DNA from: Thermodesulfobacteriota bacterium
GTDB taxonomy: Bacteria > Desulfobacterota > UBA8473
Length of the DNA stretch: 64,000 nt
Assembly (NCBI GenBank): GCA_040757775.1
Contig: JBFLWQ010000007.1
Span: forward strand, 1,728 to 65,727
Reading direction: 5' to 3'
A program made the position numbers and the translations under genes. A model generated the notes under the pieces. The model made no database searches and was not told where the DNA came from. It was given only the letters and a program-made list of their open reading frames with translations. Position 1 is the first letter of the stretch. Each line of letters begins with the position of its first letter. Shown piece after piece: positions 1,711-26,500 of this stretch.

Positions 1711-3090
1711 ATGATTGATGAAGATACAATAGCAGCCATAGCCACCCCATTTGGTACAGGTGGGATTGGAATCATTAAGATTAGCGGGCCTAAATCTTTT
1801 GAGATTGCAAAAAAAATTTTCAGGAGAAAGGCACAATCTTCCGAATTAAAACCCTACCATTTACACTATGGCGAGGTAATAGACACTCAAGACGACTCGG
1901 TAATAGATGAAGCCTTGCTGTCATTTATGCAAAAACCGACATCCTATACCAGAGAGGATGTGGTTGAGATAAACTGTCATAGTGGCTTTCTTGTTTTACA
2001 AAAAATCCTTGAAATCGTGTTAAAAGAAGGGGGCAGACTGGCAGAGCCAGGAGAATTCACAAAAAGAGCCTTTATCAACGGGAGAATTGACTTATCACAG
2101 GCTGAAGGAGTAGTTGACATAGTCAATTCCCAAACAAATGCCAGCCTTAGGGTAGCCACCCAACAACTAAAAGGTGTTTTATCAAAGGAGATAATTAAGC
2201 TAAAAGAAGACTTGATAAATGTGTTGACTTATATTGAAGCCTCTATCGATTTCCCGGAAGAAGACATCAACATAATCCCTCCTCATGAAGTGCTGAACAA
2301 GATCAAAGTATTGATGGACAATATCAGGAGATTAATAGATAGCTATGAAGAAGGAAGGTTTTATAGAGAAGGTATCTCAGCCATTATTATTGGAAAACCT
2401 AATGTAGGAAAATCAAGTTTGCTTAATGCCTTGCTCAAAGAAAAGCGGGCTATTGTCACCTCCATACCTGGAACAACCAGGGATATTATCGAAGAGGCAA
2501 TCAGTGTTGAAGGATTCCCCTTGAAGATTATAGATACAGCAGGGATAGGAGATGCTAAAGATATTATTGAAGAAGAAGGAATCAGATTAGCCAAAGAAAA
2601 GTTGACATCCGCTGACCTGGTAATCCTGGTAATAGACATTAGCCAGGAAATGGACCAAGGTAACTTTGGCATGGTTGCAGAACTGATGGGTAAGAAAGTC
2701 ATAATTGCATTGAATAAGATTGATTTAGTACCGGAGAGCTTCATTAGCAGAGCTAAGAATGAGTTAAAGAATTATTCCGTGACGCCCATCTCTGCTTTAT
2801 ATTCTCAAGGAATAGAAGAATTAAAAGAGGCGGTATTTTCTGCTATTATCCAGCATAAATTAGACACCCCCCCATCGGTATTCATCACTAACATAAGGCA
2901 TAAAATAGCTCTGGAAAAGGCTCTGGAAAATCTGGCACATGCCGGAGAAAGCCTAATTAAAGAAATGTCCCCGGAATTTACGGCATTAGATATACAGCTT
3001 TCACTAAAATGTTTGGGCGAAATCGTTGGTGAGACCACGTCTGAGGATATTCTGGACAGGATTTTTTCAGAATTCTGTATTGGAAAATAG
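1711..3090 (+). CDS. mnmE: tRNA modification GTPase MnmE
   Basis: 459 aa with G-domain motifs (GKPNVGKSSLLNAL, DTAG, NKID) and the C-terminal CIGK motif. Confidence 0.95.
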   Translation: MIDEDTIAAIATPFGTGGIGIIKISGPKSFEIAKKIFRRKAQSSELKPYHLHYGEVIDTQDDSVIDEALLSFMQKPTSYTREDVVEINCHSGFLVLQKILEIVLKEGGRLAEPGEFTKRAFINGRIDLSQAEGVVDIVNSQTNASLRVATQQLKGVLSKEIIKLKEDLINVLTYIEASIDFPEEDINIIPPHEVLNKIKVLMDNIRRLIDSYEEGRFYREGISAIIIGKPNVGKSSLLNALLKEKRAIVTSIPGTTRDIIEEAISVEGFPLKIIDTAGIGDAKDIIEEEGIRLAKEKLTSADLVILVIDISQEMDQGNFGMVAELMGKKVIIALNKIDLVPESFISRAKNELKNYSVTPISALYSQGIEELKEAVFSAIIQHKLDTPPSVFITNIRHKIALEKALENLAHAGESLIKEMSPEFTALDIQLSLKCLGEIVGETTSEDILDRIFSEFCIGK

Positions 3091-3152: not shown

Positions 3153-3899
3153 TTATTTCATAAATAGCCCTTTTTCCTTAAATGAGATGTATCCGGCAGA
3201 ACCTATTATCAGGTGATCGAGCGGTGTCAGGTCAACAGCATGGCAGGCTTTAACCAGTCTTTCATTCAATGACAAATCGTGCTTGCTAGGCTTTAAACTC
3301 CCTGAAGGATGATTGTGAACGAAGATGAGCCCGGAGGCATTCAATTCAAAGGCTTTTTTGATTATCTCCCTGGGATAGACAGCGGATTGATCGACAGTGC
3401 CCTTGAACAAATCCTCGGCAGCCAGGACCATATTGGCGCTATTCAGATAAATAACCTTGAAAACCTCTTCTTTTAGATTTGACATCGATAAAGAAAGGTA
3501 TTCAAGCACATCCTCAGGTCCGTTAATAACAGCCTTACCAATGATCTCTTCTTTCAATTGCCGCTTTGCAATCTCAGTAGCTGCAAGCAACTGCGCAATC
3601 TTGGCGGTCCCTAAACCTTTAATTTCTTCCAGTGCCTTTCTATTGGCATGCAGTAACCCCCCAAGGCCACCAAACTGTTCAAGAAGTTCTCTTCCCAGCG
3701 AGACCGCATCCTTTCCCTTTATGCCTGTACGGAGTAATATAGCTACCAATCCGGCATCGGATACATATTCAGTGCCTTTCTCCAATAATAGCTCCCGAGG
3801 TCTCTCTGACCTTGGCCAATTCTTTATTCCATCAGTTTTCTTAGTTTTATCCAGCTTATTAAGCAAATTACCCTTGACATACTCTCCTTTATTCCCCAT
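3153..3899 (-). CDS. radC: RadC-like JAB/MPN domain protein (UPF0758)
   Basis: N-terminal HhH-like region and a JAMM motif HNHPSG...S...D near the C-terminus. Confidence 0.85.
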   Translation of the reverse strand: MGNKGEYVKGNLLNKLDKTKKTDGIKNWPRSERPRELLLEKGTEYVSDAGLVAILLRTGIKGKDAVSLGRELLEQFGGLGGLLHANRKALEEIKGLGTAKIAQLLAATEIAKRQLKEEIIGKAVINGPEDVLEYLSLSMSNLKEEVFKVIYLNSANMVLAAEDLFKGTVDQSAVYPREIIKKAFELNASGLIFVHNHPSGSLKPSKHDLSLNERLVKACHAVDLTPLDHLIIGSAGYISFKEKGLFMK

Positions 3900-4119
3900 A
3901 ATTTCCTCAACCTGTTAAAAGATTTGGTTCTTCTCCCAGAACCCTTGAACCCTTGATGCCTTGAATCCTTTTCATCGACCAACTCTTTGGGAGATGAAAC
4001 ATAAGTATATTGATATCGCAGAAAACGTCAATACAGAATTTATTTTACAATACCAGTTTATATTAGAAGATGCGGACATTTTCTCGCTTAATAAATTGTT
4101 AGCATAACAGAAGGAAAAT

Positions 4120-4812
4120 ATGCCAAGCAAAGCATACAAAGCCTTTAATAAGAACGCGAGTGATATCCAGCGGCTCTTAGATGTCCACGAAGAACAAAGT
4201 GGAACCTCTCCGGGTCGGCGATATAGACTCGAGGTTTTGAATAAGAGCGCCATCGTTCTCATAACTTCCTTCTGGGAGGCATACTGCGAGGACTTGGCCG
4301 CTGAAGGCCTTGAGCACATTGTGACACACTCCACGTCCTCCGCTTCTTTGCCAAAGGAAATAAAGCAGGTTGTCGCCAAAGAGCTCAGGAAAGATGCGAA
4401 TGAATTGGCTGTTTGGTCTCTTTGCGGGGACGGCTGGAAACAAATCCTCCGTTCTAACCTCCAACGCTTACGAGATCAACGAAACAAGAAATTGAACACA
4501 CCAAAGACCGAAAATATAGATGAGTTGTTCTATAACGCTTTAGGTATACCTCATGTCTCGTCGTCATGGCGATGGGCAAAGAAAATGACCGCGAACAGAG
4601 CCCGCGAGAAACTCGATAAGTATGTAACCTTGCGGGGAGAGATTGCACACAGAGGAAAGGCAGCAAAAGCTGTAACAAAGGCCCAGGTCCAAGATTACTT
4701 TGAGTTTATCAAAAAGCTGGCTTCAAAAACAGGTGGCACTGTCAATACGCATGTGGGCAAGATTACCGGCAAACATCTATGGCCAATTCTAAGGCGTAGA
4801 ATCGTTTCATAG
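4120..4812 (+). CDS. HEPN-motif protein (putative RNase / abortive-infection type)
   Basis: 230 aa. Rx4H motif (RGEIAH) near the C-terminus as in HEPN nucleases. Good RBS AAGGAAAATATG. Visibly GC-richer than its flanks. Confidence 0.5.
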   Translation: MPSKAYKAFNKNASDIQRLLDVHEEQSGTSPGRRYRLEVLNKSAIVLITSFWEAYCEDLAAEGLEHIVTHSTSSASLPKEIKQVVAKELRKDANELAVWSLCGDGWKQILRSNLQRLRDQRNKKLNTPKTENIDELFYNALGIPHVSSSWRWAKKMTANRAREKLDKYVTLRGEIAHRGKAAKAVTKAQVQDYFEFIKKLASKTGGTVNTHVGKITGKHLWPILRRRIVS

Positions 4813-5000
4813 AAATGCTAACAAAATTATCAAGCCTACGCCGGGGAAACCTGTTTTCTCTTCTTCTCGTTCTTTGGCCCGCGCGGCTGATGATAAGTGT
4901 TGAGCCTATAGAAAAAGTCTAAACTGATCGGGAAACTAAATTTACGTATAAGGACTTTTTTACAGACTAGTTATAAGGTTCAAGTAATCAAGGGAATGTA

Positions 5001-6314
5001 ATGGATTCAAAATTTAAATATGTTTTCCTTGATGCGATGATTTTTTTGCATTTTAAACCTGTTGAGCAAATTGATTGGCCTAGCTTACTCAACAGCATGC
5101 CAGTTCGGTTAACTCTCACCCGTATTACCATTAGAGAGCTAGATAAGCACAAATCAGTACATCCATCTCCTAAAATTAAGGATCGAGCGAGAAGAACTTT
5201 GAAAAAGATTGAAGCTTTTTTGAAGTCACCAGATATGCCAATAAGGGAAGGCGTTGAAATAACTTTTTATGACGAAATGCCGTCACTAGATTACCCTTCC
5301 TATGGTCTAAATCCTGATTGGTCCGATGACATTCTTATCGCCACAATTCTTTCTTATGCGCAAAAATGGGACAGAAATAGTATCGTTTTAGTAACAGACG
5401 ACACCGGTATGAGGATTAAAGCCAACTCTCTTGATATTGAAACATTTGAACTGCCAGACGATCTTCGTCTCCCAATTGAACCTGACCCTTTGGTTGAAGA
5501 GAACCGGAAGCTTAGAGAGAAGCTTACAATACTGAGCGCAACTTTGCCGGAATTGCATCTCTATTTTGACAATGGAGAATCCTTTAAGAAATTTGAATTC
5601 GACACCGAGGGGTATGAAACAGTTGAGAAACGAATATCTCGGATAACTGCTGAAGTAGAAAAAGAGAGAAAGAAAAGGGAATATACCCCAAATGTATTGC
5701 TTCATGTTTCTAGCATGCATTCTCCAACTCAGCAAGAGATGGAGCGTTTCAAAAGAGACCTGAACGAATATTTGAAACAGTACGAATCCTACCTAAACGA
5801 TCTTAGTGATTGGAAGCTTTCCAAGTCTAAGATATTCGCAATAGAATTTAATGTTGTTAATGAAGGTAATGCACCTGCTGAAGATATTGATATTCTAATT
5901 TACTTTCCTGACGGCTTCTTGATTCGGAAGGAGGATGATTTGCCAGCAATACCAAAACCACCGAAGGAACCAATTCCGCCGAAATCAACTCTTGAATTAA
6001 TTCAAAGCCGTTTCGATATTATTAAAAATTTTAGCTTACCTTCATATGATCAATCCATCCTTTCATCACTTTCTAGAAATGTCCCGAGAAACGTCTCTGG
6101 TCCCAAGATAAAGCGAACTGAAAGCTATAAGGTTGAATACCACATAAGTCGACTAAAACATGGGTTTTCTATAAAACTTGATGCCGTATATTTAGACTTT
6201 TCTGAATCCGTTGGAATTAAATCTTTCGAGGCTAAATATTGGATCAACGCAGGGAACATGCCAGAAAGTGCAGAAGGCAGCCTGCATGTAATATTTGAAT
6301 CCAAAATCTTATAA
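5001..6314 (+). CDS. PIN-like domain protein with ~290-aa C-terminal extension of unknown function
   Basis: N-terminal 140 aa show a PIN-like acidic pattern (YVFLDAMIFL ... LVTDDTGMRIKA). Remainder has coiled-coil/unknown segments. AT-rich composition. Confidence 0.45.
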   Translation: MDSKFKYVFLDAMIFLHFKPVEQIDWPSLLNSMPVRLTLTRITIRELDKHKSVHPSPKIKDRARRTLKKIEAFLKSPDMPIREGVEITFYDEMPSLDYPSYGLNPDWSDDILIATILSYAQKWDRNSIVLVTDDTGMRIKANSLDIETFELPDDLRLPIEPDPLVEENRKLREKLTILSATLPELHLYFDNGESFKKFEFDTEGYETVEKRISRITAEVEKERKKREYTPNVLLHVSSMHSPTQQEMERFKRDLNEYLKQYESYLNDLSDWKLSKSKIFAIEFNVVNEGNAPAEDIDILIYFPDGFLIRKEDDLPAIPKPPKEPIPPKSTLELIQSRFDIIKNFSLPSYDQSILSSLSRNVPRNVSGPKIKRTESYKVEYHISRLKHGFSIKLDAVYLDFSESVGIKSFEAKYWINAGNMPESAEGSLHVIFESKIL

Positions 6315-6380
6315 CCACAGGTTGGAAAAGGGTGCGAGACTTCACTCGTACTCCTCAGCCTAGCCCTTAGGAGGGATGGA

Positions 6381-6905
6381 ATGAAAAAAATTAGCATTAT
6401 AGGTGGTTTTCTCATCGTTGTCGCTATTGTTGGATTTCTTTACGTAAAAGGGACACCACAGTACTCTCTCTACCAGTTTAGAAATGCTGTAGAAAACCAT
6501 GATGCCGATACTGCAATTAAGTATTTTGATGTGGATAGCATTGTCGATAATTTAATGACAGATTTTATGAAAGAAGAGGAAGCCAAGAAGCCTAAAAATG
6601 GATGGGAAGCAATGGGACAAAATTTTGCAAGAGGACTTATGGTGTTGATGTTGCCACGGATGAAAGAAGCAATGAAAGGACAATTGAAAACTGCGATAAC
6701 TACACCATCTGATGATAAAACTGCTGTCAAAGACATCAAAAAGGGGAGCATCTCAGATTTTGAGATAAAAACTGAAGGCAAAATGGCGATTGTTTCCCGT
6801 AAGGATGATCCCAAAGTGAAGTTTAAAATGGTGAAGACGCCTGAGGGTTACTGGAAAATAGTTCAACTAATGATGCCCGAAACACTGCAACACGTACAGA
6901 AATGA
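6381..6905 (+). CDS. DUF2939-like membrane-anchored protein
   Basis: N-terminal TM helix followed by PQYSLYQFRNAVENHDADTAIKYFDVDS, the signature stretch of the DUF2939 family. Strong RBS AGGAGGGATGGAATG. Confidence 0.5.
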   Translation: MKKISIIGGFLIVVAIVGFLYVKGTPQYSLYQFRNAVENHDADTAIKYFDVDSIVDNLMTDFMKEEEAKKPKNGWEAMGQNFARGLMVLMLPRMKEAMKGQLKTAITTPSDDKTAVKDIKKGSISDFEIKTEGKMAIVSRKDDPKVKFKMVKTPEGYWKIVQLMMPETLQHVQK

Positions 6906-6927
6906 AAATAAACATACCGAGGAGAAG

Positions 6928-7362
6928 ATGATAAAACTCTATAATCTGAGCTGCTTCATCGCCATTATTTTTTTGTTCGTCCTGTTCAGTTCCGCTATTG
7001 CAAAAGAGCAAAATAAGGGAGTTGCGGTTGAAATTACGCAACAACAAAGCTCAATTAACACAGGCAAAAAATTTATAACTCTTGGATTTAAGGGCATTCA
7101 TTTGGGAATGAAACGGGATGAAGTTAAAGAAGTTGTTAGTTCCGGCAACGGATGGAGTTTCCGATACGGTTCCGATGTCTCTGACGAGTACGTATTTTTG
7201 AACTCAGAAACTCTTGTTGGCTGCAAAGATCAAGGTGAAACTGAAGAATGTTATAGGATCGACACGGTAGCACTCCGGTTTTTTGAGGATCATGTTATTC
7301 AAATAAGTCTTGATAGCCCGGAGTATACCGCGACTGACATAGATTATTATGTCAAGGGGTGA
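6928..7362 (+). CDS. Secreted hypothetical protein (signal peptide)
   Basis: Hydrophobic N-terminus ending ...SSAIA-KEQ. RBS GAGGAGAAGATG. Confidence 0.4.
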   Translation: MIKLYNLSCFIAIIFLFVLFSSAIAKEQNKGVAVEITQQQSSINTGKKFITLGFKGIHLGMKRDEVKEVVSSGNGWSFRYGSDVSDEYVFLNSETLVGCKDQGETEECYRIDTVALRFFEDHVIQISLDSPEYTATDIDYYVKG

Positions 7363-7588
7363 GAGCGTTTCAGCTTACAAATACTAAAAAAGAAATTTAG
7401 AAACCCTTCGAAGACTAATCTCAGCATAGATAGATTCAATATATTTTCGGTACAGAGCGGTTATTCAGTGCAACGTTATGAATGGAACAGGAAGGACTAG
7501 ACGATTATACTTGCTATAGATTCAAATTATTTCAAGTATTATGCAAAAATTCGATACATCAATAGGAAAGCAAGGATCTGGAAGATCT

Positions 7589-7704
7589 GGGGTCAGGTCT
7601 TGAATTATGAGTTTTATTCAAATATTCATTGCATTACAGTGAAGACAGTTGTGAAAAATGAACGCTTGTAGGTCGCGCAATCTGATAATTCAAGACTTGA
7701 CCCC
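7589..7704. repeat. 116-bp element bounded by 20-bp inverted repeats (GGGGTCAGGTCTTGAATTAT / ATAATTCAAGACTTGACCCC, 19/20 complementary)
   Basis: Read directly from the 387-bp intergenic region upstream of the T5orf172 gene. Could fold into a long stem-loop. Confidence 0.6.
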
Positions 7705-7749
7705 ATTTGGACTTAGATTATTATTGTCTGCAATTAAAAGGACGAAAAT

Positions 7750-8676
7750 ATGAAAGTACCTCTCAAAAAAGCGATTAATTCTTTATCTTGGTATAACTGT
7801 CAAACAGAATGTTGGCCCGTAACATTTAAGGATAATGAAATAATTAATTATCAAATAAAAGTATTGTCGTTTGAGAGAATTAACTTAACAGAAGTAGATG
7901 GCTCAGACAAAATCAGTCTGAATTTAGAAAATGGCATCTTATGGATATTACGGGTTGAGGTCGTAAATTTGTGGAAAAAAACAATATCCTCATTTCCAAT
8001 TTACGACTCTGTAATATTAATTGATAAGGACGGTTCAGAATATAAGCCTATAACTGATGACCATTTGACGAATGAATCTCACTCCAACTATGCCATGTCA
8101 TCAGGATTAAATCTTCTTAATGGGAGTTCTGGCTATCGCTGTGGAGAATTAATTCCGAAAGTTCCATTGAAAGGTGCGCTTGCGTTTCTTTTACCTATGA
8201 CTGAAAATGACAGGTTTTATTTATCAGTTGAAGGGGGAAAGATTTGGGAAAGAAAAGAAACCGAAGAAAAGAATTCATTGCAAGGTTGGATTTATGCGTT
8301 GACCAATCCATCTTTACCACAAAACTTTCTCAAAATTGGCATGACGACACGTACCCTTGAAGAAAGACTAAAAGAACTTTCATCTAACACTGGTGTCCCA
8401 ACTCCGTTCCGTGTTGTTTTTGAAGCAGAGGTCTCGGATTGTAAACAGGTGGAAATGATAATTCATCACAACTTAGCGAAATATCGCCATAGTTCTAGTA
8501 AAGAATTCTTTGATTTACCACAGAACGAGGCAATCCCAATTTTGGCCAGAATATGTTCACAATTCCCAATAAAACCTTCACCATCGCCTGAAGAAATAGC
8601 AAAAGAAAAAAGAGTAAATGAAATAGAGGCTGAAATTGAACGACTAAAAGAAGAACTGGAAATTTTGAAAGGATGA
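7750..8676 (+). CDS. T5orf172 (GIY-YIG-superfamily) domain protein with an unknown ~190-aa N-terminal domain and C-terminal coiled coil
   Basis: Region GWIYALTNPSLPQNFLKIGMTTRTLEERLKELSSNTGVPTPFRVVFEAEV...EFFDL matches the T5orf172/MUG113 GIY-YIG-like signature. C-terminus has heptad-like EIERLKEELEILKG. Confidence 0.6.
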   Translation: MKVPLKKAINSLSWYNCQTECWPVTFKDNEIINYQIKVLSFERINLTEVDGSDKISLNLENGILWILRVEVVNLWKKTISSFPIYDSVILIDKDGSEYKPITDDHLTNESHSNYAMSSGLNLLNGSSGYRCGELIPKVPLKGALAFLLPMTENDRFYLSVEGGKIWERKETEEKNSLQGWIYALTNPSLPQNFLKIGMTTRTLEERLKELSSNTGVPTPFRVVFEAEVSDCKQVEMIIHHNLAKYRHSSSKEFFDLPQNEAIPILARICSQFPIKPSPSPEEIAKEKRVNEIEAEIERLKEELEILKG

Positions 8677-8689
8677 GCGGTCATACTTA

Positions 8690-8719
8690 GGGACGTTGTT
8701 TCTAATTAATAAATTACTT
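8690..8719 (+). repeat. Copy 1 of a 26-30-bp motif (GGGACGTTGTTTCTAATTAATAAATTACTT)
   Basis: Begins 13 nt after the stop of 7750..8676. The 26-mer CGTTGTTTCTAATTAATAAATTACTT recurs exactly at 10603..10628, and an inverted 18-mer at 8851..8868. Confidence 0.7.
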
Positions 8720-8850
8720 GGCAGGCAGTCGGTTTTTATATAGAACCGTATCATGCTGCGACAAGCTACGGGCAGGTGGGCGTGAATACATCGCGGGTAT
8801 TACAAAGGCAATCGAGAGGGTTGAACAACGTTATGGCTATAAATATCATG

Positions 8851-8868
8851 AATAGAAACAACGTCCCC
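8851..8868 (-). repeat. Inverted copy (AATAGAAACAACGTCCCC) of the 5' part of the 8690 motif
   Basis: Reverse complement GGGGACGTTGTTTCTATT matches 8690..8704. Together with copy 1 it forms a potential ~180-bp hairpin/MITE-like unit. Confidence 0.6.
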
Positions 8869-8961
8869 AAAGGTTTCCTTTATATCAAGGCTAATCTGCT
8901 TGTCGATCATTGGTTAGATTTATAAAAATCTATTGAAGACCAATATAGGATTTCAACAGCT

Positions 8962-9600
8962 ATGAATACACTTGAAAAACTAAAGAAGAAAAGATTTCTA
9001 TTTATGAATCGGTTATATGAGATTAGTGGTGGAGATCGTCACAAAGTTTTCGATGAATGGAAAGATATTTGTGAGGTGCGTAATTTTTCAGAAAGTGAAT
9101 GTGAAACAATTTCACAATATCTAGAGGGGGAGGGTCTTATTAAATGGGTAGCACAGGGCGGTGCCATCTCAATTACACATAGAGGGGTTATGGAGGTAGA
9201 AGAAGCTTTAACTGAGCCGGAACAATCTACCAATTATTTTCCACCTGTAATTAACATTATTAATGTTCACCATATGGAAGGTTCACAAATTCAACAAGGT
9301 TCTTATCAAAGCACTCAATCTGTAAGTTTTTCTCATGAAACACAAAAAAGTCTTCAGGAATTCATTGAGTTACTAAAAGAGAAGTTACCAAATATCCAAA
9401 TTGCACAAGATGATCGTTCGGAGATTCAGGCCGATATATCAACAATAGAAGCACAAATAAATTCTATCCGCCCGAAGCCAAGTATAATAAAGGAGAGTCT
9501 AAGTTCAATTCAGCGTGTTCTCGAAAGCACAACAGCAGGAATCATTGCAGGAGAATTGTTAAAATACTTACCTGCGTTATTTGCAGCTCTTCAAGTCTAA
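8962..9600 (+). CDS. Hypothetical cytoplasmic protein
   Basis: 212-aa ORF; no motif recognised beyond a possible small helix-turn-helix-like N-terminal segment. Weak RBS. Confidence 0.35.
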   Translation: MNTLEKLKKKRFLFMNRLYEISGGDRHKVFDEWKDICEVRNFSESECETISQYLEGEGLIKWVAQGGAISITHRGVMEVEEALTEPEQSTNYFPPVINIINVHHMEGSQIQQGSYQSTQSVSFSHETQKSLQEFIELLKEKLPNIQIAQDDRSEIQADISTIEAQINSIRPKPSIIKESLSSIQRVLESTTAGIIAGELLKYLPALFAALQV

Positions 9601-9886
9601 CACTTATAAGACCTCCCCTTGTCAAGAGAAAAAAGGACCCTGATCGGAAAATATAAATAAAAAATAATACGTAGGAACGTCCATTTGTAAATTAGTTTAC
9701 AATTTTTGGAATAGCAAGAATAGCACAATTTTTAATAGCAAGGGGGTAGATGCTTCGACCGTAAAAGCCGGGGCCGAAAAAGAAACATGGTTGAATTGAG
9801 TATTGTGGCCCCATAACCTCCATAACCTTTTCCCCAAAACCTTCAATTACTGAAACTGGCACAAAAACGACAATAGGAGGTAACAG

Positions 9887-10570
9887 ATGCAAGCTACTCG
9901 TAACATAGTCATGACGACCGTTCTTATTGCAATGATCTTTCCGACATATGCATTCGGCCAATCCGCGAAAGAGGCAATTCTTGCTCTGAAAAAGCTTCAG
10001 GTAAAAGTTCAAACTGGCATAACTTATAAGGAATACTCACCCGCAGTTGCTGAGGCGAAGTTTCCCGTTATTGTTTTTCTTGAAAGCCCGGAGGGAAAGC
10101 TAGACACTGCATTGTCTGCATATCTTTCAAAAGCTGTACGGCACTATGATAATGCAATTTCAGTCTGGGGAATCAAATTTTCCAGCAGGAGAGTCGAAAG
10201 CCGTATTTACGCTGATAAAAATCGAGAGTTATTCGAAGCAGTAATTAGAATGTACCCAGATTCCCCTGTAAATGTGACTGGGTACACAAAGCAGAGCTAT
10301 ATAGACATCGGGGAAATGTTGTCTTTCATTTGGACGAAAGCCTCTATTGAACTCGAAAAGGCATCAGGGTTATTGGCACAAGTGGAATCTAATGCCAAGG
10401 CTTTGAAGCTAGAAGGCCAATTATTACAAAAGGAAAACGAGCAGTTGAAGGCAGAGATTACTGTAATGAGAACTGAAATTGAACGATTGAAGGTCGAAAA
10501 CAAGAAACTGCAACAAGAAGTTGATACTCTTAAGAGTAAGCCGACTTCTCAAAAGAAGGCAAAACAATGA
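9887..10570 (+). CDS. Secreted protein with C-terminal coiled coil
   Basis: Signal-peptide-like N-terminus (…IFPTYAFG-QS). C-terminal heptad-rich region (LEGQLLQKENEQLKAEITVMRTEIERLKVENKKLQQEVDTLK). Strong RBS AGGAGGTAACAGATG. Confidence 0.45.
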   Translation: MQATRNIVMTTVLIAMIFPTYAFGQSAKEAILALKKLQVKVQTGITYKEYSPAVAEAKFPVIVFLESPEGKLDTALSAYLSKAVRHYDNAISVWGIKFSSRRVESRIYADKNRELFEAVIRMYPDSPVNVTGYTKQSYIDIGEMLSFIWTKASIELEKASGLLAQVESNAKALKLEGQLLQKENEQLKAEITVMRTEIERLKVENKKLQQEVDTLKSKPTSQKKAKQ

Positions 10571-10597
10571 TTTTGACAAGCCAGCTAAACAATACTT

Positions 10598-10629
10598 GGG
10601 GGCGTTGTTTCTAATTAATAAATTACTTT
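10598..10629 (+). repeat. Copy 3 of the 26-30-bp motif (GGGGGCGTTGTTTCTAATTAATAAATTACTTT)
   Basis: Exact 26-mer shared with 8694..8719. Lies 28 nt after the stop of 9887..10570 and is followed by the tandem AATTCTGGGGAATTCTGGGGAC. Confidence 0.7.
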
Positions 10630-10722
10630 GCTGAAATTCTGGGGAATTCTGGGGACACAATACTTAATTATTAACAAGGGAGATTCGGCCTCTAACGTTA
10701 TTACAGTAAACCAATTTTCAAA

Positions 10723-10757
10723 TTGACATTCTCCCATTACGGATATACAATGTATAT
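10723..10757 (+). promoter_or_regulatory. Sigma70-like promoter (TTGACA-17 nt-TACAAT) overlapping a 15-bp palindrome ATATACAATGTATAT; likely mazEF promoter/operator
   Basis: Read directly: -35 at 10723..10728, -10 at 10746..10751, palindrome at 10743..10757, about 25 nt upstream of the mazE start. Confidence 0.5.
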
Positions 10758-10780
10758 TATACGTGTAAGGAGGCATAAAT

Positions 10781-11032
10781 ATGCAAGATAATATGGAGTT
10801 ACAAATTGGGAAATGGGGGAATTCGCTTGGTATTCGACTTCCAAAGCATGTATTAGAATCACTCCATCTGGGTGTAAAAGATCGGGTCAGTTGCTCATTA
10901 GAGGATGGAAAATTGATTTTAAAGCCTTTGTCTCACCAAAAGAAATACACATTAGAAGCGTTGCTCGCCCAAGTGCAAGAACCCGGTGTAGAAGTTTCAT
11001 GGGGTAAACCTGAAGGAGAGGAAGTTTGGTAG
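10781..11032 (+). CDS. mazE: MazE-type antitoxin (SpoVT/AbrB fold)
   Basis: MQDNMELQIGKWGNSLGIRLPKHVLESL... is the typical MazE/PemI swapped-hairpin antitoxin. Overlaps the downstream mazF by 7 nt. Confidence 0.8.
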   Translation: MQDNMELQIGKWGNSLGIRLPKHVLESLHLGVKDRVSCSLEDGKLILKPLSHQKKYTLEALLAQVQEPGVEVSWGKPEGEEVW

Positions 11033-11361
11033 ACTATACCCCAAAACGCGGAGATTTTATTCGCCTTAATTTTGATCCACAAGCTGGACATGAACAAAAG
11101 GGAAGCAGACCAGCTTTAGTCGTAAGTCATAGCGCTTTTAATGAAAAAATGGGGTTCGTTTTTGTTTGTCCCATCAGCAACACAAAACGTAAAAATCCAT
11201 TTTATGTAGCCATACCCAAAGGTAAAAAAGTTACAGGGATGATCATGGCAGATCAGTTGCGTTCGCTTGATTACGGAGCTAGAAATGCGGCCTACATTAG
11301 CAAATGTCCAGAAGAACTACTACATGAAGTCTTAATGCGTATAGACCCTATAATGTTCTAA
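11026..11361 (+). CDS. mazF: MazF/PemK-type endoribonuclease toxin
   Basis: 111 aa: ...YTPKRGDFIRLNFDPQAGHEQKGSRPALVVS...MIMADQLRSLD is classic MazF. Probable TTG start overlapping the mazE stop. Confidence 0.8.
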   Translation: MVDYTPKRGDFIRLNFDPQAGHEQKGSRPALVVSHSAFNEKMGFVFVCPISNTKRKNPFYVAIPKGKKVTGMIMADQLRSLDYGARNAAYISKCPEELLHEVLMRIDPIMF

Positions 11362-11407
11362 CTTACATGTATTGTAGTCGCCGCATTAGGGCGCATGAGA
11401 CCCATTA

Positions 11408-11956
11408 ATGAACACATCAGAAAAAGTCTGGCAAGAATATCATTCAAGGCTGCGTGCGTTTATTAAGAGCAGAATTATAGATGACGCGGCGACCGATGAC
11501 ACTCTTCAGAACGTATTTCTGAAAATGCATGCCGGATTGGATTCCCTGAAGGATGAGACAAAGCTGCAAAGCTGGCTCTACCAAATTGCAAGAAACGCTA
11601 TCATCGACTATTTCAGGTCGCAGAAGCCCACCGTAGATATTCCTGAGTGGCTCCCGCAACCCGAAACCGATCCCAGCGAAAAGGTCACACAAGAGTTGTC
11701 GGAATGCCTGCAACCCATGATACAATTGCTGCCCGAGAACTATCGGGAGGCGGTCATTCTCTCCGAATTAAGAGGATTGACGCAGAAGGAAGTTGCCAAA
11801 TTGCAGGGCATTTCCCTTTCCGGAGCCAAATCCCGAATACAACGGGGGCGTACCCTTTTGAAAAACATGCTGGCAGAGTGCTGTCGTTTTGAGTTCGATC
11901 ATAGTGGACGGCTCTGTGATTATAAACGAAAAGGTAAGGCTTGTGATACCTGTTGA
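11408..11956 (+). CDS. ECF-type RNA polymerase sigma-70 factor with Cys-rich C-terminal tail (SigZ-like)
   Basis: Sigma-70 region 2 (…LQNVFLKMHAGL…WLYQIARNAIIDYFR) and region 4 (LSELRGLTQKEVAKLQGISLSGAKSRIQRGR). Terminal CCRFEFDHSGRLCDYKRKGKACDTC. GC-rich relative to flanks. Confidence 0.75.
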   Translation: MNTSEKVWQEYHSRLRAFIKSRIIDDAATDDTLQNVFLKMHAGLDSLKDETKLQSWLYQIARNAIIDYFRSQKPTVDIPEWLPQPETDPSEKVTQELSECLQPMIQLLPENYREAVILSELRGLTQKEVAKLQGISLSGAKSRIQRGRTLLKNMLAECCRFEFDHSGRLCDYKRKGKACDTC

Positions 11957-12044
11957 CCATCGGATACAGATCGTTTGCGTCTTTTTTGATCTTTTTCCGT
12001 CTATAGGGTGAGCGTTGCTCATTAACCCCATAGAGGAGGTTTAA

Positions 12045-12851
12045 ATGGACAAGCAAAAGAATGACGAGATTCGCAGTGCGGTTCGGGAGAATTACGGAAA
12101 GGTTGCTGCATCAGGGCGGGCTGGTTGCGGCTGCTCTACCTCATCCTGTTGTGTAACACCCAATGATGTGACGTCAGCGGATATTTCGCTTGGCTTGGGT
12201 TACTCTTGCGAGGATGTGACCGCTGTGCCGGAAGGAGCAAACTTGGGACTTGGGTGTGGCAATCCGCAGGCCATCGCCTCCTTGCAACCCGGCGAAACGG
12301 TGCTCGACCTGGGTAGCGGCGGAGGATTCGACTGTTTCCTGGCGGTGCGGGCCGTTGGGGATAAGGGACTTGTCATCGGTGTTGACATGACGCCGGAGAT
12401 GATCACCAAATCCCGCCGGAACGCGGAGAAAGCCAGCCTCTGGAACGTCGATTTTCGGCTGGGAGAGCTGGAAAACCTTCCGGTTGCCGATGGAATTATT
12501 GATGTCATCATTTCGAATTGCGTAATCAACCTTTCTCCCGAGAAAGAAAGGGTTTTCAGCGAGGCTTTCCGAGTATTGAAACCGGGTGGACGATTGGCGA
12601 TTTCCGATGTTGTTGCAACCGCTGAACTGCCAGAGGACATTAAAAAAGATATGGCATTCCACACCGGATGTATAGCGGGTGCATCTTCTGTCGAAGAACT
12701 CCAATCTATGTTGCAACGAACCGGTTTCGAGAACATTCAGATCAAACCAAAAGAGGAAAGCAGGACATTTATCCGTAACTGGATGCCTGGAAGCAAGATC
12801 GAGGACTATGTGCTTTCGGCAACTATTGAGGGAGTGAAACCCCGGGTCTGA
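12045..12851 (+). CDS. arsM: Arsenite S-adenosylmethionine methyltransferase (ArsM-like)
   Basis: SAM-binding motif VLDLGSGGGFD. Conserved Cys pairs (GCGCS...CC; ...NCVINL). GC-rich; strong RBS AGAGGAGGTTTAAATG. Confidence 0.75.
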   Translation: MDKQKNDEIRSAVRENYGKVAASGRAGCGCSTSSCCVTPNDVTSADISLGLGYSCEDVTAVPEGANLGLGCGNPQAIASLQPGETVLDLGSGGGFDCFLAVRAVGDKGLVIGVDMTPEMITKSRRNAEKASLWNVDFRLGELENLPVADGIIDVIISNCVINLSPEKERVFSEAFRVLKPGGRLAISDVVATAELPEDIKKDMAFHTGCIAGASSVEELQSMLQRTGFENIQIKPKEESRTFIRNWMPGSKIEDYVLSATIEGVKPRV

Positions 12852-13049
12852 CAGGCAGGCGTTTAGCTTTTACACAAGAAGATTGCGGTAGCCCGATATA
12901 AAGATTCATATACCCAGAGAAAGCTCATCCCCATCTTTCTTGAAAAACAAATCCCACCAAGAGGACAAAATCGCTAAAATGAAACTTACATGCCTCAAAG
13001 AGACACAAAGAATAAGTAAAATGTCTTTGCGAGGAGATCGCCATAGGCG

Positions 13050-13164
13050 AACAGCCCCTACAACAGCACACTTAAGTGTGCTGTTGTTAAGAATGGGATT
13101 GCTTAATCCGCCTCTGGCGGATTCGCAATGACAGGAATAGGTACATTTTCAAGTGAAAGAATCT
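13050..13164 (+). repeat. R-element copy 1: 26-bp perfect palindrome CAACAGCACACTTAAGTGTGCTGTTG (13061..13086) + hairpin AATCCGCC-TCTG-GGCGGATT + conserved leader running into the rsmG start
   Basis: About 85% identical over ~100 bp to 44196..44311, including the stretch AATGACAGGAATAGGT..ATTTTCAA(G/A)TGAAAGAA that carries the start codon. Confidence 0.75.
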
Positions 13165-13809
13165 ATAGAGGGAATCCTTTATAAAGGGGCAAATGCAATA
13201 AATGTCTCTTTGACCCCCAGGGAGATTGAACTATTTAAAACTTACCTGATGGAGCTAAAGAGGTGGAGTTCTAAAATAAATATTACCGCCATACACGATG
13301 ACATAGAAATTGTGGTCAAACATTTCATTGACTCTCTTTCCCCGTTGAACTATATACCCCAAAACTCCTCCTTGCTGGACATTGGTTCAGGAGGGGGGTT
13401 CCCAGGTATACCTTTGAAGATTGCAAATCCGTCTTTATCTGTTACTTTGCTCGATTCTACCCTGAAGAAGGTAAACTTCCAAAAACAAATAATAAGACTA
13501 CTACAACTGAATAATATTAAAGCAGTGCATGGAAGGGCCGAAGATAAAAGCTCCTACAGAAAAACGGATTCACCTTTTGACGTGGTTATTTCAAGGGCAT
13601 TTTCAGGTTTAGGGAAATTTTTAGCTATAGGAGAACCCTATTTAAAGAGAGACGGGCTCCTGATAGCTATGCGTGGAAGGGGGGCAAAAAGAGAACTGGC
13701 TGTAAATGAAGAGGTGTTGACATGTCTGAGGCTAAAGCTTGTTAACATAGTTGAATTTAACTTGCCGTACTTAAATGAAAAGAGAAAGCTTATCGTACTT
13801 ACTAAATAG
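13153..13809 (+). CDS. rsmG: 16S rRNA (guanine527-N7)-methyltransferase RsmG
   Basis: GidB family: ...LKRWSSKINITAI..., SAM motif LLDIGSGGGFPGIPL. GTG start lies inside the R-element. Confidence 0.9.
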   Translation: MKESIEGILYKGANAINVSLTPREIELFKTYLMELKRWSSKINITAIHDDIEIVVKHFIDSLSPLNYIPQNSSLLDIGSGGGFPGIPLKIANPSLSVTLLDSTLKKVNFQKQIIRLLQLNNIKAVHGRAEDKSSYRKTDSPFDVVISRAFSGLGKFLAIGEPYLKRDGLLIAMRGRGAKRELAVNEEVLTCLRLKLVNIVEFNLPYLNEKRKLIVLTK

Positions 13810-22237: not shown

Positions 22238-22279
22238 TTTGGATTTAGCGTTTACTAATTTATAATGAGGGACTGGGGT

Positions 22280-25200
22280 ATGGCTAAATCGAATCATATC
22301 TATTTAGGTATTGATATAGGTTCAGTGAGTGTCAATACCGTAGTAATGAATAAAAACAGGGATATTCTGGAGGAGCACTACACCAGAACGATGGGGCAAC
22401 CTTTAAAAACAGTGGGAAAGGTTCTTACAAAAGTTCTTTCCTGCATCGAAAAGGATCAAATAGTGGCTGCTTCCCTCACAGGCACAGCAGGTAAGCTGGT
22501 AGCAGAACTCATAGGGGCAAACTTTGTCAATGAGATTATCGCCCAGAGTAAATCTGTAGAGTACCTTTATCCCCGAGTAAAAACAATTGTTGAGATTGGA
22601 GGAGAAGATTCTAAACTCATCTTACTTGACTATGATAAGCACCGGAAGGGGACAAGGATCGCAGATTTCGCCATGAATACAATATGCGCCGCTGGTACCG
22701 GATCCTTTCTGGACCAACAAGCCCATAGGTTAGGTTTAAGCATTGAAGAGTTTAGCAAATTGGCGCTAAAATCAGAGAATCCTCCCAGGATTGCCGGAAG
22801 GTGTAGTGTATTCGCTAAAACCGACATGATTCACTTACAGCAGGGAGCTGCTCCAGACTTCGATATCGTTGCGGGTCTGTGTTATGCTATGGCAAGGAAC
22901 TTCAAAAGCAATATTGGAAAAGGCAAAAACTTTACCCGCCCTGTCTCATTTCAGGGGGGAGTGGCAGCCAATGTAGGCATGAGAAAGGCATTCTTTGATG
23001 TCTTGGAATTAGAGAAAGCGGAGTTTATCATTCCAAGGCATTTTGCATCAATGGGTGCCATCGGCTCTGTGATTGCTACTATGGAAGGCCCGGCTAAACA
23101 AATCCCATTTCTGGGTTTAGAAAGGCTTCAGAATTACCTGGAAACCCATCAGGAAAAAAGTATTGGATTACGTCCTCTTACCCTTTCAGAGGAAAGTAAA
23201 AAGGGAATGGCAGAGATTACAACCAAACCTTGCGCCTCGAAAAAAGAGGATAAGGTAGATGCTTTTCTGGGTATAGACGTAGGATCAATTAGCACAAACG
23301 TGGTGATTATAGATAGAAACAAGAATCTTCTGTCCAAGAGATACCTGATGACCGCTGGTAGACCTATAGAGGCAATAAGACAGGGACTAATGGAAGTTGG
23401 AGAAGAAATAGGTGATTGTGTAACTATACGAGGTGTGGGAACTACAGGTTCAGGAAGGTATTTGACAGGGGATTTCGTTGGGGCTGATATCGTAAGGAAT
23501 GAGATAACCGCCCAAGCTACAGCATCTATTAATATTGATCCAGATGTTGATACAATATTCGAAATTGGTGGCCAGGATTCAAAGTATATTAGCATAGAAA
23601 ACAGTACCATAGTTGATTTTGAAATGAATAAAGTCTGCGCAGCGGGCACCGGATCCTTTTTGGAGGAACAGGCAGAAAAATTGGGAATCTCCATCAGGGA
23701 GGAGTTTGGAAACATGGCTTTAAGTGCTCCATCTCCTGTTTCCCTTGGTGAGAGGTGTACTGTATTTATGGAGTCCGATCTTGTTCACCACCAACAGAGA
23801 GGTGCCAGTAAGGAAAATTTAGTTGCAGGGTTAAGCTATTCAATAGCTATAAATTATCTGAATAAGGTAGTAGGAGATAGAAAGGTAGGAGAAAAAATCT
23901 TCTTCCAGGGAGCAACGGCATTTAACCGGGGGATAGTGGCCGCCTTTGAAAATATTCTTGGCAAATCCATTAAGGTCCCTTTGAACAACGAGGTTACAGG
24001 AGCCATAGGTGTTGCCATTCTGGCTATGGAAGAGAATAAGAATAAGGAAAGTAAATTCAAGGGTTTTGATCTAAGTGATAAAAGTTATGACCTCTCTTCC
24101 TTCGAATGTAAGGGGTGCCCGAACATGTGTGAGATAAGAAAGCTCTCCGTCAAAGGAGAGAGCCCCCTTTTTTACGGGAGCAGGTGTGAAAAATATGAAG
24201 TGAATAAAGAAAAGAAAGAGAAATTTGACTTGCCAGATCTCTTTGCCGAGAGAGAAGATCTGCTCCTAAATATCCACAAAAAGAATGATGGATTGGATGA
24301 TACTTCTCCAGTTATAGGCATACCCAGGATACTATTCTTCCATGAGCTGCTTCCTCTATGGAAGACCTTCTTTAATGAGCTGGGATTCGGGGTAGTATTT
24401 ACTGAAAAAAGCAATAAAAAAATCATCCATCAAGGGGTTGAAAGCGTTGTAGCCGAAACATGTTTTCCAATCAAGGTCTCCCATGGACATATACTGGAGC
24501 TAATAGAAAAGGGCATAAAGAGGATATTCCTGCCAAGCATTATTAATATGAAACGAATACATCCAGATATTGAACAAAGTTACAACTGTCCTTATGTCCA
24601 GGCATTTCCCTATACTGTGAAATCCGCTATCAACTTTGAAAAACACGATGTACAGGTTCTCCAACCCATAATAAACCTTGGAATAGGGAGGAGTGGATTA
24701 GAGAAACCTTTGGTAAAGATGGCAAAGGAGCTAAAGATACCATCTAAGAAGGTCAAGATGGCTATCTCCAAGGCATTAGATGTTCAGAACAATTTCTATT
24801 CTGCCCTGCAGGCCAGAGGAACTGAGATTCTGGCCAATCTCAAAGAAGAACAGAAGGCAATAGTCATTGTAAGTCGGCCATACAACGGATGTGATTCCGG
24901 CATCAACATGGACTTACCCAAGAAACTGAGAGATTTGGGCGTTCTTGCAATCCCCCTTGATTTCCTGCCCTTAGAAGATAGTGACCTGGCAAAGGCAGCG
25001 GGACATATGTACTGGAAGTATGGACAGAGGTTTTTGACCGCTGCCCATATAATAAGGAATAATCCAAATCTATACGCCCTGTATATCACCAATTTTGCCT
25101 GCGGGCCAGACTCCTTTATATTACATTTCTTCAGGGATAAATTAAAAGGAAAACCATACCTTCAGATAGAGGTAGACGAACACAGTGCAGATGTTGGAGC

Positions 25201-26500
25201 TATTACCCGTTTAGAGGCATTCCTTGATACTCTGAAGAACGTTACCGGGAAAACAAAAGTTGAAAAAAGGGAAAAGACCACCCATACCCAAAGGAAACAA
25301 AACAAGAAAAGAAATATTTACATTCCCTATATGTCTGATCATGCCCTTGTCCTCTCTGCCGCCTTTGAAGCATGTGGCGTACCTTCGGTAGTAATACCGG
25401 AATCCGATGAAGAAACCCTGGAGTTGGGAAGAAAATTAACCTCTGGCAAAGAATGTTATCCCTGTATACTGACTACAGGCAACATGGTAAGGCTATTAAA
25501 AGACCCTGATTTTAATCGTCAAAGCTCTGCTTTCTTTATGCCATCTGCTAACGGGCCGTGCCGTTTTGGACAGTATCATCGTTTTCACCGCTTGATCCTT
25601 GATGAGCTGGGATATGAAGATGTGCCCATATATGCCCTCAATCAAGATGAAACCATTTATCAGGAATTGCAAACTATCGGGAAGAAGCTTATTGGGCTGG
25701 CATGGCAGGGCATAATAGCTGTTGATATTCTCGAGAAAAGGCTCAGGGTTACAAGACCATACGAGAAAAATCCGGGGGAAACAGAAGGTGTCTATCGTCA
25801 TTTCATACAAAAAATCTCTGACGTTATAAGAAAAGAAGGGGACATCTTTGAAACCCTGAAGGAAGCGCGGGCAGAGTTTGACTGGATAGAGTTAAATAAT
25901 CCAGAAAAAAGACCTGTAATTGGGATAGTGGGAGAGATTTATATCCGTTCAAACAATTTCAGTAATGAAAATATCGCCTTAAAGATTGAAAGTCTTGGTG
26001 GAGAGGTATGGCTTCCCCCCATCTCCGAATGGGTATTCTATACTAATTTCACATCAAAGAGGAGGAGCCTTGGTAATAAGAATTATAGGGGTTTCCTTAG
26101 CACCTGCCTGACAGAACTCTTTCAAAAACGCGTCGAACACAGATTAGAAGCGGCTTTTGACGGCTCGATAAAGAACCTCAGAGAACCGAGCACAAAGCAA
26201 ATATTAAAATGGGCAGGACCCTATATTGATTCCTCTTTTGAGGGGGAAGCAGTCTTAAGTATAGGAAAGGCAGTGGACTTTTATAAAAAGGGGGTAAGTG
26301 GTATTGTAAATGTAATGCCCTTTACCTGTATGCCCGGCACCATCGTTAGCGCTATACTCAAGCGATATCGAGATAACCATAACTATATCCCTGTCCTTAC
26401 TATGGCATATGATGGGCAAGAAAATACCAGTACCCAGACAAGACTAGAAGCGTTCATGTATCAGGTTCACCAGTATCAGGAACAGATGGGAAAAAAATAG
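22280..26500 (+). CDS. Fused CoA-substrate-specific enzyme activase (two BadF/BadG/BcrA/BcrD-type ATPase modules) + 2-hydroxyglutaryl-CoA dehydratase D-component-like domain
   Basis: Duplicated acetate/sugar-kinase-type ATPase modules (IYLGIDIGSVS..., FLGIDVGSISTN...; CAAGTGSFL twice), then a large HgdB/HGD-D-like region. ~1400 aa. ATG at 22280 preferred over the track start. Confidence 0.8.
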   Translation: MAKSNHIYLGIDIGSVSVNTVVMNKNRDILEEHYTRTMGQPLKTVGKVLTKVLSCIEKDQIVAASLTGTAGKLVAELIGANFVNEIIAQSKSVEYLYPRVKTIVEIGGEDSKLILLDYDKHRKGTRIADFAMNTICAAGTGSFLDQQAHRLGLSIEEFSKLALKSENPPRIAGRCSVFAKTDMIHLQQGAAPDFDIVAGLCYAMARNFKSNIGKGKNFTRPVSFQGGVAANVGMRKAFFDVLELEKAEFIIPRHFASMGAIGSVIATMEGPAKQIPFLGLERLQNYLETHQEKSIGLRPLTLSEESKKGMAEITTKPCASKKEDKVDAFLGIDVGSISTNVVIIDRNKNLLSKRYLMTAGRPIEAIRQGLMEVGEEIGDCVTIRGVGTTGSGRYLTGDFVGADIVRNEITAQATASINIDPDVDTIFEIGGQDSKYISIENSTIVDFEMNKVCAAGTGSFLEEQAEKLGISIREEFGNMALSAPSPVSLGERCTVFMESDLVHHQQRGASKENLVAGLSYSIAINYLNKVVGDRKVGEKIFFQGATAFNRGIVAAFENILGKSIKVPLNNEVTGAIGVAILAMEENKNKESKFKGFDLSDKSYDLSSFECKGCPNMCEIRKLSVKGESPLFYGSRCEKYEVNKEKKEKFDLPDLFAEREDLLLNIHKKNDGLDDTSPVIGIPRILFFHELLPLWKTFFNELGFGVVFTEKSNKKIIHQGVESVVAETCFPIKVSHGHILELIEKGIKRIFLPSIINMKRIHPDIEQSYNCPYVQAFPYTVKSAINFEKHDVQVLQPIINLGIGRSGLEKPLVKMAKELKIPSKKVKMAISKALDVQNNFYSALQARGTEILANLKEEQKAIVIVSRPYNGCDSGINMDLPKKLRDLGVLAIPLDFLPLEDSDLAKAAGHMYWKYGQRFLTAAHIIRNNPNLYALYITNFACGPDSFILHFFRDKLKGKPYLQIEVDEHSADVGAITRLEAFLDTLKNVTGKTKVEKREKTTHTQRKQNKKRNIYIPYMSDHALVLSAAFEACGVPSVVIPESDEETLELGRKLTSGKECYPCILTTGNMVRLLKDPDFNRQSSAFFMPSANGPCRFGQYHRFHRLILDELGYEDVPIYALNQDETIYQELQTIGKKLIGLAWQGIIAVDILEKRLRVTRPYEKNPGETEGVYRHFIQKISDVIRKEGDIFETLKEARAEFDWIELNNPEKRPVIGIVGEIYIRSNNFSNENIALKIESLGGEVWLPPISEWVFYTNFTSKRRSLGNKNYRGFLSTCLTELFQKRVEHRLEAAFDGSIKNLREPSTKQILKWAGPYIDSSFEGEAVLSIGKAVDFYKKGVSGIVNVMPFTCMPGTIVSAILKRYRDNHNYIPVLTMAYDGQENTSTQTRLEAFMYQVHQYQEQMGKK

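Follow-up and report, generated by a model that had tools for sequence, protein, structure and literature searches.

The RiboL-PSP family of HEPN proteins was defined by Anantharaman et al. 2013 (PMC3710099). It is distantly related to AbiD/AbiF, and its traits are a conserved Rx4-6H motif, fusions to endoRNase L-PSP and operons with ParB (PMC3710099). A gene for a member of this family is followed by a gene for a PIN_4 protein in the window analysed here, which is the whole stretch of 64,000 nucleotides from contig JBFLWQ010000007.1 of a Thermodesulfobacteriota bacterium. We assign a probability of about 0.72 to the reading that these are unrelated, separately acquired solitary genes that lie side by side by chance, one for a predicted self-contained HEPN RNase and the other for a proposed PIN sensor-effector, in a ~9-kb island of defence and toxin genes. 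The HEPN protein is similar to the RiboL-PSP family in that it matches the profile over the full length, contains the Rx4-6H motif, is modelled as an all-helical protein, is bacterial and is found in conflict-type neighbourhoods. It differs from the contexts listed for this family in that it has no L-PSP domain and no adjacent ParB, either in the window or in ~10 homologue contexts. The L-PSP fusion and the ParB operon are contextual traits of some members and are not part of the Pfam definition. The HEPN protein is also similar to the single-gene HEPN defence proteins (AbiD/AbiF/AbiJ/AbiU2, ApeA, PD-T4-5 and PD-T7-3), in that its gene is solitary, has no antitoxin partner and is located in islands with defence genes, and one of its homologues directly adjoins an AbiU2 gene. 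Because no PADLOC model matches the HEPN protein at E <= 1, it resembles the single-gene abortive-infection (Abi) HEPN proteins in plan, but is not one of them by sequence.

The PIN protein is similar to the SMG6/EST1A-type PIN proteins and to the PhoH-like (YlaK) PIN_4 proteins in its profile, in its structure matches and in its acidic active-site residues, but lacks the PhoH ATPase, the EST1/14-3-3 region and the KH domain. It has instead a helical linker and a beta-sandwich, and the sandwich is found only together with PIN_4 in our searches. VapC, the toxin of the VapBC systems, is ~130 amino acids (aa) long and its gene is always preceded by a vapB antitoxin gene. The PIN protein shares with VapC the PIN fold, the location in mobile or accessory DNA and, by analogy, probably a metal-dependent nuclease chemistry. 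It differs from VapC in its size, in the lack of a conserved upstream gene and in matching PIN_4 instead of the VapC-type PIN model. The possibility that it is a VapBC toxin was rejected on its size (437 versus ~130 aa) and on the lack of a conserved antitoxin gene in 101 loci. The beta-sandwich is similar to the immunoglobulin (Ig)-like domains of the CARDB/DUF11/NEW3 (E-set) type in its strand motif N-x-G-x-x-P-A-x-D and in its weak NPCBM_assoc and DUF11 matches, but these matches are all below the Pfam thresholds and the beta-sandwich contains a ~60-residue proline-rich insertion. Most domains of the CARDB/DUF11/NEW3 type are extracellular. The N-terminus of the PIN protein is the first strand of the PIN domain, and therefore this protein has no signal peptide.

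The initial annotation placed the two open reading frames (ORFs) correctly (Table 1) and interpreted them, as predicted RNase domains in tandem, as one toxin or abortive-infection module, with the caveat that the genes might have been acquired independently. Loci of both families were gathered from genome, metagenome and assembly collections. A PIN-family gene is present in 105 of the 129 loci and a HEPN gene in 24, but both genes are present in none (0/105 PIN loci with HEPN and 0/24 HEPN loci with PIN). A hidden Markov model built from 120 HEPN homologues gives no match in the PIN loci, for which upstream sequence of at least 1 kb is available in 71 and of at least 1.5 kb in 61 of the 101 loci collected at that stage. 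When the 4,053 ORFs of these 101 loci were clustered all-against-all, no conserved neighbour of the PIN gene was found, and the only ORFs that recur are the PIN gene itself and spurious antisense ORFs. The HEPN gene is seen in ~10 distinct contexts, and the neighbours in these contexts are mutually unrelated. The search for a conserved partner of the HEPN gene among these neighbours, including upstream ORFs of 149, 149 and 155 aa, was unsuccessful for the same reason. These results indicate that the proposed module dissolves into two solitary genes.

The closest relatives of the two genes lead to the same conclusion. A contig that encodes a PIN protein 90% identical to that of the window (L126) shows 93% nucleotide identity to the window over 4970-6360 only, so that the homology block extends from 31 bp before the PIN start codon to 46 bp past the stop codon, and the gene upstream of this PIN gene is an unrelated gene for a 135-aa protein. 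Likewise, contigs that encode a HEPN protein 85% identical to that of the window (L009-L014) show 84% nucleotide identity to the window over 4098-4784 only, and no PIN gene is located downstream of their HEPN gene. The GC content is 0.470 for the HEPN gene and 0.380 for the PIN gene, as compared with 0.417 for the window, and the GC content at third codon positions (GC3) is 0.506 and 0.340 respectively. The contrast between a GC-rich HEPN gene and an AT-rich PIN gene described in the initial annotation is therefore real but modest. The termination of homology at the gene borders, together with the difference in GC3, indicates that the two genes are separately acquired gene-sized units, and the caveat of independent acquisition is borne out by these observations and by the lack of shared loci. 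Integron or CALIN (clusters of attC sites lacking integrases) cassettes were considered as the origin of the gene-sized homology blocks and were rejected, because no attC-like site is present in the island. An attC scan by pattern and folding detects two weak candidates in the window, at 34985-35093 and 48762-48906, both of which are located outside the island.

The HEPN protein matches Pfam HEPN_RiboL-PSP (PF18735) with an E-value of 5.8e-21 and a score of 75.7 bits, as compared with the cut-off of 28.4 bits. This match covers residues 15-203 of the protein and positions 5-184 of the 191 positions of the profile. A weaker Pfam match is obtained with HEPN_MAE_28990 (PF18737; E 3.3e-07). The sequence RGEIAH, which had been recognised as an Rx4H motif typical of HEPN RNases, is located at residues 172-177, inside the PF18735 match. 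An Rx4H motif by itself is weak evidence, since it is expected to occur by chance roughly 0.2 times per protein of this size. However, R172 and H177 are invariant in 120 of 120 HEPN homologues, as they also are in alignment A5, and the block L-R-G-x-I-A-H-R-G around them, including G173, I175, A176, R178 and G179, is at least 95% conserved among the 120 homologues. G32-R-R and W52-E-A-Y-C-E-D are further invariant blocks of the same homologues. The HEPN protein is therefore, by profile and motif, a member of the RiboL-PSP family of the HEPN superfamily. The AlphaFold2 (AF2) model of the HEPN protein is all-helical, with a predicted local distance difference test score (pLDDT) of 82.5.

The word-indexed homologues of the HEPN protein number 736, of which the best 120 are 59-100% identical to it. 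The identical protein is recorded from a metagenome-assembled genome (MAG) of Thermodesulfobacteriota, and Gallaecimonas and MAGs of Desulfobacterales and Desulfobacteraceae are among the sources that are named. Distant copies that are 33-41% identical are found on plasmids of Streptomyces and Pseudomonas. The neighbours of the HEPN homologues include AbiU2, Ymh-type HEPN, Nmad2/Nmad3 and NACHT proteins, integrases and transposases. In the contigs L118-L120 (~1208-2595), a RiboL-PSP HEPN homologue follows an AbiU2-type HEPN gene in the same orientation at a distance of 62 bp, and in this lineage the HEPN-HEPN tandem might form a true pair. A RadC-family gene is also observed at most ~1 kb from a HEPN homologue in the unrelated contigs L112-L114 (~5743-6249), which may be a coincidence or a weak link. 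This second RadC-family gene encodes a protein of 168 aa that matches the RadC family only, and adjoins a Rad52/Rad22 gene. In the window, the divergent, full-length radC gene encodes a protein of 248 aa and is located at most ~1 kb from the HEPN gene. A HEPN-MNT or HEPN-ParA pair was rejected, because radC and the PIN gene flank the HEPN gene in the window, and because the neighbours of its homologues are mutually unrelated.

Residues 36-150 of the PIN protein match PIN_4 (PF13638) with an E-value of 1.9e-10 and a score of 41.6 bits, as compared with the cut-off of 21.9 bits. The acidic signature predicted at the N-terminus is conserved among 67 family members, in which E46 and D109 do not vary and the conservation of D11, D110 and D134 is 90% or higher. 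The AF2 model of the entire protein has a pLDDT of 90.2. When the PIN domain of this model is compared with known structures by Foldseek, it matches the PIN domain of SMG6 (2hwx, E 1.5e-06, template modelling score on the target 0.58), AF0591 (1o4w, E 1.0e-05, 0.62) and Nmd4. The PIN fold that had been anticipated is thus recovered by structure comparison. A profile of the PIN protein matches EST1A/SMG6 among the PDB sequences (E 4.1e-07), and the PIN domain matches the PIN region of a PhoH-like family of PHROG (E 1.9e-07). A weak match is obtained with PDB 9jxw ('PIN domain-containing protein', 429 aa), but at a different position (E 0.059). These results indicate that the protein is a PIN_4 protein and that its catalytic domain resembles that of SMG6 rather than that of VapC.

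Residues ~160-437 of the PIN protein match no Pfam, NCBIfam or PADLOC family at threshold, in agreement with the initial annotation, which had described the C-terminal region as having no recognisable family. Nevertheless, the fold of the C-terminal domain is recognisable in the AF2 model as a confidently modelled Ig-like beta-sandwich. This domain is preceded by a helical linker, in which D162, L171, P183 and L185 are conserved, and it is broken in the model by a proline-rich, partly disordered insertion of ~60 residues (~310-368). N287-x-G289-xx-P292-A293-x-D, F302-P303, a P-x-x-P-x-x-P run and K386-H387 are conserved in the C-terminal domain. Foldseek matches this domain to integrin calf/thigh domains and macroglobulin/complement C3 MG domains (E 3e-06 to 1e-03) and to TTHA1873. 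Sub-threshold Pfam matches of the domain are obtained with NPCBM_assoc in 22 of 75 members (best E 4.5e-04) and with DUF11 in 13 of 75, and because both are beta-sandwich domains, these weak matches agree with the conserved strand motif that begins at N287.

The word-indexed homologues of the PIN protein number 86. When only the C-terminal part is used as the query of an exhaustive phmmer search, 1,577 representatives of 50% identity clusters are detected at E <= 0.001, of which 896 are detected at E <= 1e-10. The top 150 matches are all either fragments or proteins of ~420-470 aa in which the domain occupies the same place, and a profile search with the C-terminal domain returns PIN_4 proteins only. 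The uniform architecture of the top 150 matches and the restriction of the profile matches to PIN_4 proteins indicate that the PIN protein represents an unnamed family of large size and uniform build, rather than an isolated fusion. Fusion of the C-terminal domain to other effectors was considered and rejected, because only PIN_4-type architectures or fragments were obtained by the profile and phmmer searches. The family is patchily distributed over at least 10 phyla, including Gemmatimonadota, Nitrospirota, Verrucomicrobiota, Planctomycetota, Actinomycetota, Bacteroidota, Lentisphaerota, Aminicenantes and Desulfobacterota, and one homologue is labelled Heimdallarchaeota. At its loci, the PIN gene is accompanied by genes for Lit-like Peptidase_U49, HicB, Shedu SduA_C, DUF4357, ParB and MZB-helicase proteins. 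Another PIN locus contains a gene for a 1,643-aa NACHT protein, together with AbiEii, integrases and transposases, and yet another, which is located on a conjugative plasmid, contains HipAB and an integrase. Type IIG restriction-modification (R-M), BREX BrxC/PglX, HerA, HNH and DUF4145 proteins are found among 140 immediate neighbours.

The reading as two solitary, separately acquired genes is directly supported by the domains identified, by the conservation of the catalytic residues, by the lack of any constant partner gene, by homology blocks of the size of one gene and by the genomic contexts. Several observations weigh against it or against parts of it. Foldseek gives no significant match of the HEPN model in the PDB, the best HEPN entry being 7ae6 with an E-value of 2.0, so that the HEPN fold assignment rests on sequence profile and motif. 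Neither the HEPN protein nor the PIN protein matches a PADLOC-DB v2.0 (2023) family at E <= 1, and the searched literature contains no functional study of RiboL-PSP/PF18735, PIN_4 or single-gene PIN defence and nothing that ties either family to defence. The two families hardly occur in sequenced phages and plasmids: no copy of the HEPN family is found in sequenced phages and one is found in IMG/VR, and the PIN family is represented by none in sequenced phages and by one partial homologue on a plasmid. Some HEPN homologues are located beside housekeeping genes, such as those for the pyruvate dehydrogenase complex and a proton-pumping pyrophosphatase (H+-PPase), and the defence genes beside PIN homologues are occurrences without a background rate for comparison. 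Finally, the two genes have the same orientation and are separated by 188 bp without a predicted terminator, so that incidental co-transcription in this genome is possible. The counts of the promoter and terminator scan are at the chance level. The 188-bp junction contains no terminator-like site on the + strand, so that read-through into the PIN gene is possible, but would be incidental.

This arrangement would also be expected if the two genes formed a lineage-specific two-gene toxin or abortive-infection module, in which the proteins act together or one of them controls the other, and it is also in favour of such a module that both proteins belong to nuclease superfamilies and that the island is rich in defence and toxin-antitoxin (TA) genes. 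We regard this module as highly improbable, because no locus contains both genes, neither gene has a partner in any of the contexts examined, and the closest relatives lack the other gene, with homology stopping at the gene borders and GC3 differing (0.51 versus 0.34). The same lack of a partner bears on the possibility that one or both of the genes encode classical TA toxins, such as a VapBC-like PIN toxin or a HEPN-MNT- or HEPN-ParA-like HEPN toxin, with an antitoxin that is short, missing from the annotation or lost. TA toxins most commonly have a PIN or HEPN fold (PMC3710099 and general knowledge), a mazEF pair is present in the same island, and small ORFs are located beside some HEPN homologues. 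However, neither family has a conserved neighbour, no MNT, ParA or VapB-like gene is adjacent, and the PIN protein is a protein of 437 aa with a C-terminal domain of its own and with a PIN domain that is SMG6-like and not VapC-like. Because the conserved DNA blocks contain the gene alone, a small flanking partner is not co-inherited, and classical TA toxins are accordingly unlikely.

The HEPN and PIN proteins could also have housekeeping or RNA-processing roles, as a HEPN protein of RNA metabolism and as a PIN protein of the SMG6/Fcf1 type, in which case their accessory location would be incidental. Some PIN homologues are named 'rRNA-processing protein FCF1' automatically by JGI, the best structure matches of the PIN domain are eukaryotic RNA-decay PIN domains, and some HEPN homologues are located beside core metabolic genes, as described above. 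Against such roles, a pattern scan of 185,579 species genomes detects only 16 PIN loci, which are scattered over many phyla, and the neighbourhoods are variable and contain integrases and transposases. In addition, the gene-sized homology blocks indicate horizontal transfer, and we give housekeeping or RNA-processing roles a small probability.

A toxin or defence role is plausible for each of the two genes on its own, and the two are most likely independent one-gene systems, each encoding a self-regulated nuclease of a defence or abortive-infection kind. To judge from the HEPN enzymes that have been characterised, the HEPN protein is most likely a metal-independent RNase that would act through R172 and H177, and this pair probably acts across a homodimer interface. 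The HEPN protein may be kept harmless by self-regulation, as are the single-gene Abi HEPN proteins, and not by a partner antitoxin. The PIN domain would be an SMG6-like, Mg2+/Mn2+-dependent endonuclease joined through the helical linker to the Ig-like beta-sandwich, and the most likely working model for the PIN protein is a sensor and an effector in one protein. According to this model, the sandwich, which carries the proline-rich loop and the conserved K386-H387, would serve to recognise a trigger or to bring about assembly, and the sandwich, loop or linker would gate the PIN nuclease by ligand binding or oligomerisation during attack by a phage or mobile element. The RNase activity, the substrates, the gating mechanism and the role in defence are thus inferred. 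It is conceivable, though doubtful, that the PIN_4/linker/beta-sandwich family is an undescribed single-protein anti-phage or abortive-infection system, in which the intracellular sandwich would sense a phage component or drive assembly and so release the SMG6-like endonuclease, and that the solo HEPN protein is a second, independent one.

Unrelated nuclease genes routinely pile up in defence islands, and the dissolution of the HEPN-PIN tandem is a warning against over-reading adjacency in such islands. The PIN-beta-sandwich family is widespread, uniform and uncharacterised, recurs beside R-M, BREX, Shedu, Lit-like and NLR-like/NACHT genes and has no model in the 2023 PADLOC library, and is a reasonable candidate for a single-gene defence system. 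If this is true, the known sensor modules would gain an Ig-like domain that is intracellular. For the solo RiboL-PSP HEPN family, the searched literature likewise holds no functional study.

Table 1. Positions in the window of the HEPN and PIN genes, their parts and the surrounding features
Feature	Position	Strand	Basis or remark
Solitary HEPN gene, RiboL-PSP family, 230 aa, predicted all-alpha	4120..4812	+	ORF, Pfam, AF2
Codons for R172-G-E-I-A-H177, HEPN Rx4H catalytic motif	4633..4650	+	alignment of 120 homologues
Junction between HEPN and PIN genes, 188 bp	4813..5000	+	no conservation with the DNA that flanks the relatives of either gene
Solitary PIN_4/helical linker/beta-sandwich gene, 437 aa	5001..6314	+	ORF, homologues, AF2
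PIN domain, residues ~1-155, acidic D11, E46, D109/D110, D134	5001..5465	+	Pfam, conservation, Foldseek, profiles
Helical linker, residues ~158-275 (helices 163-180, 208-225, 244-275; hairpin 185-200)	5472..5825	+	DSSP of AF2 model
C-terminal beta-sandwich, residues ~276-437	5826..6311	+	AF2 strands, Foldseek, conservation
Mosaic accessory island with HEPN and PIN genes, ~9 kb	3900..13152	.	radC (ends 3899) to rsmG (starts 13153)
mnmE	1711-3090		
radC	3153-3899		
T5orf172 gene	7750-8676		
AbiTi/PDC-M14B-like ORF	8962-9600		
Coiled-coil ORF	9887-10570		
mazE-mazF	10781-11361		
Extracytoplasmic function (ECF) sigma factor gene	11408-11956		
S-adenosylmethionine (SAM) methyltransferase gene	12045-12851		
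rsmG	13153-13809		

The location of the two genes at the start of an accessory island, as proposed in the initial annotation, agrees with the gene order of the window. The upstream core genes are yidC (partial), jag, mnmE and radC, the downstream core genes are rsmG, parA, parB, gyrB and gyrA, and these genes represent the origin-proximal core of a Thermodesulfobacteriota genome. The island between them sets mnmE and rsmG apart, and no mnmG is present between these two genes. In addition to the HEPN and PIN genes, the island contains genes for a DUF2939 protein, an ORF of unknown function, the T5orf172 gene, which matches the PADLOC candidate PDC-S57 (E 1.9e-29), the AbiTi/PDC-M14B-like gene, a gene for a coiled-coil protein, a complete type II TA pair, mazE-mazF (PemK-like), with overlapping genes and, 3' of this pair, genes for an ECF sigma factor and then a SAM methyltransferase. 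The island is thus rich in defence and toxin genes. The GC content of its genes varies from 0.355 for the T5orf172 gene to 0.524 for the SAM methyltransferase gene, indicating that the island is a mosaic of several separate acquisitions. No tRNA gene is found in the island, and no direct repeats bracketing the HEPN and PIN genes are found.

Repeats are present elsewhere in the island. A 40-nucleotide (nt) sequence, ATACTTAGGGACGTTGTTTCTAATTAATAAATTACTTGGC, occurs as a direct repeat at 8683-8722 and 10592-10631 with 93% identity, and a partial inverted copy is located at 8842-8870, which is 126 nt past the first copy. The direct copies flank the AbiTi/PDC-M14B-like ORF and the coiled-coil ORF, and may be borders of a miniature inverted-repeat transposable element (MITE) or a cassette. 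A 27-nt inverted repeat (7588-7614/7679-7705), the arms of which are 89% complementary and are separated by a 64-nt spacer, is located in the long intergenic region directly 5' of the T5orf172 gene. Outside the island and downstream of gyrA, a 1,411-aa ORF (22265-26500), which is unrelated to the HEPN and PIN genes, contains BadF/BadG/BcrA/BcrD ATPase and DUF2229 CoA-enzyme-activase domains.

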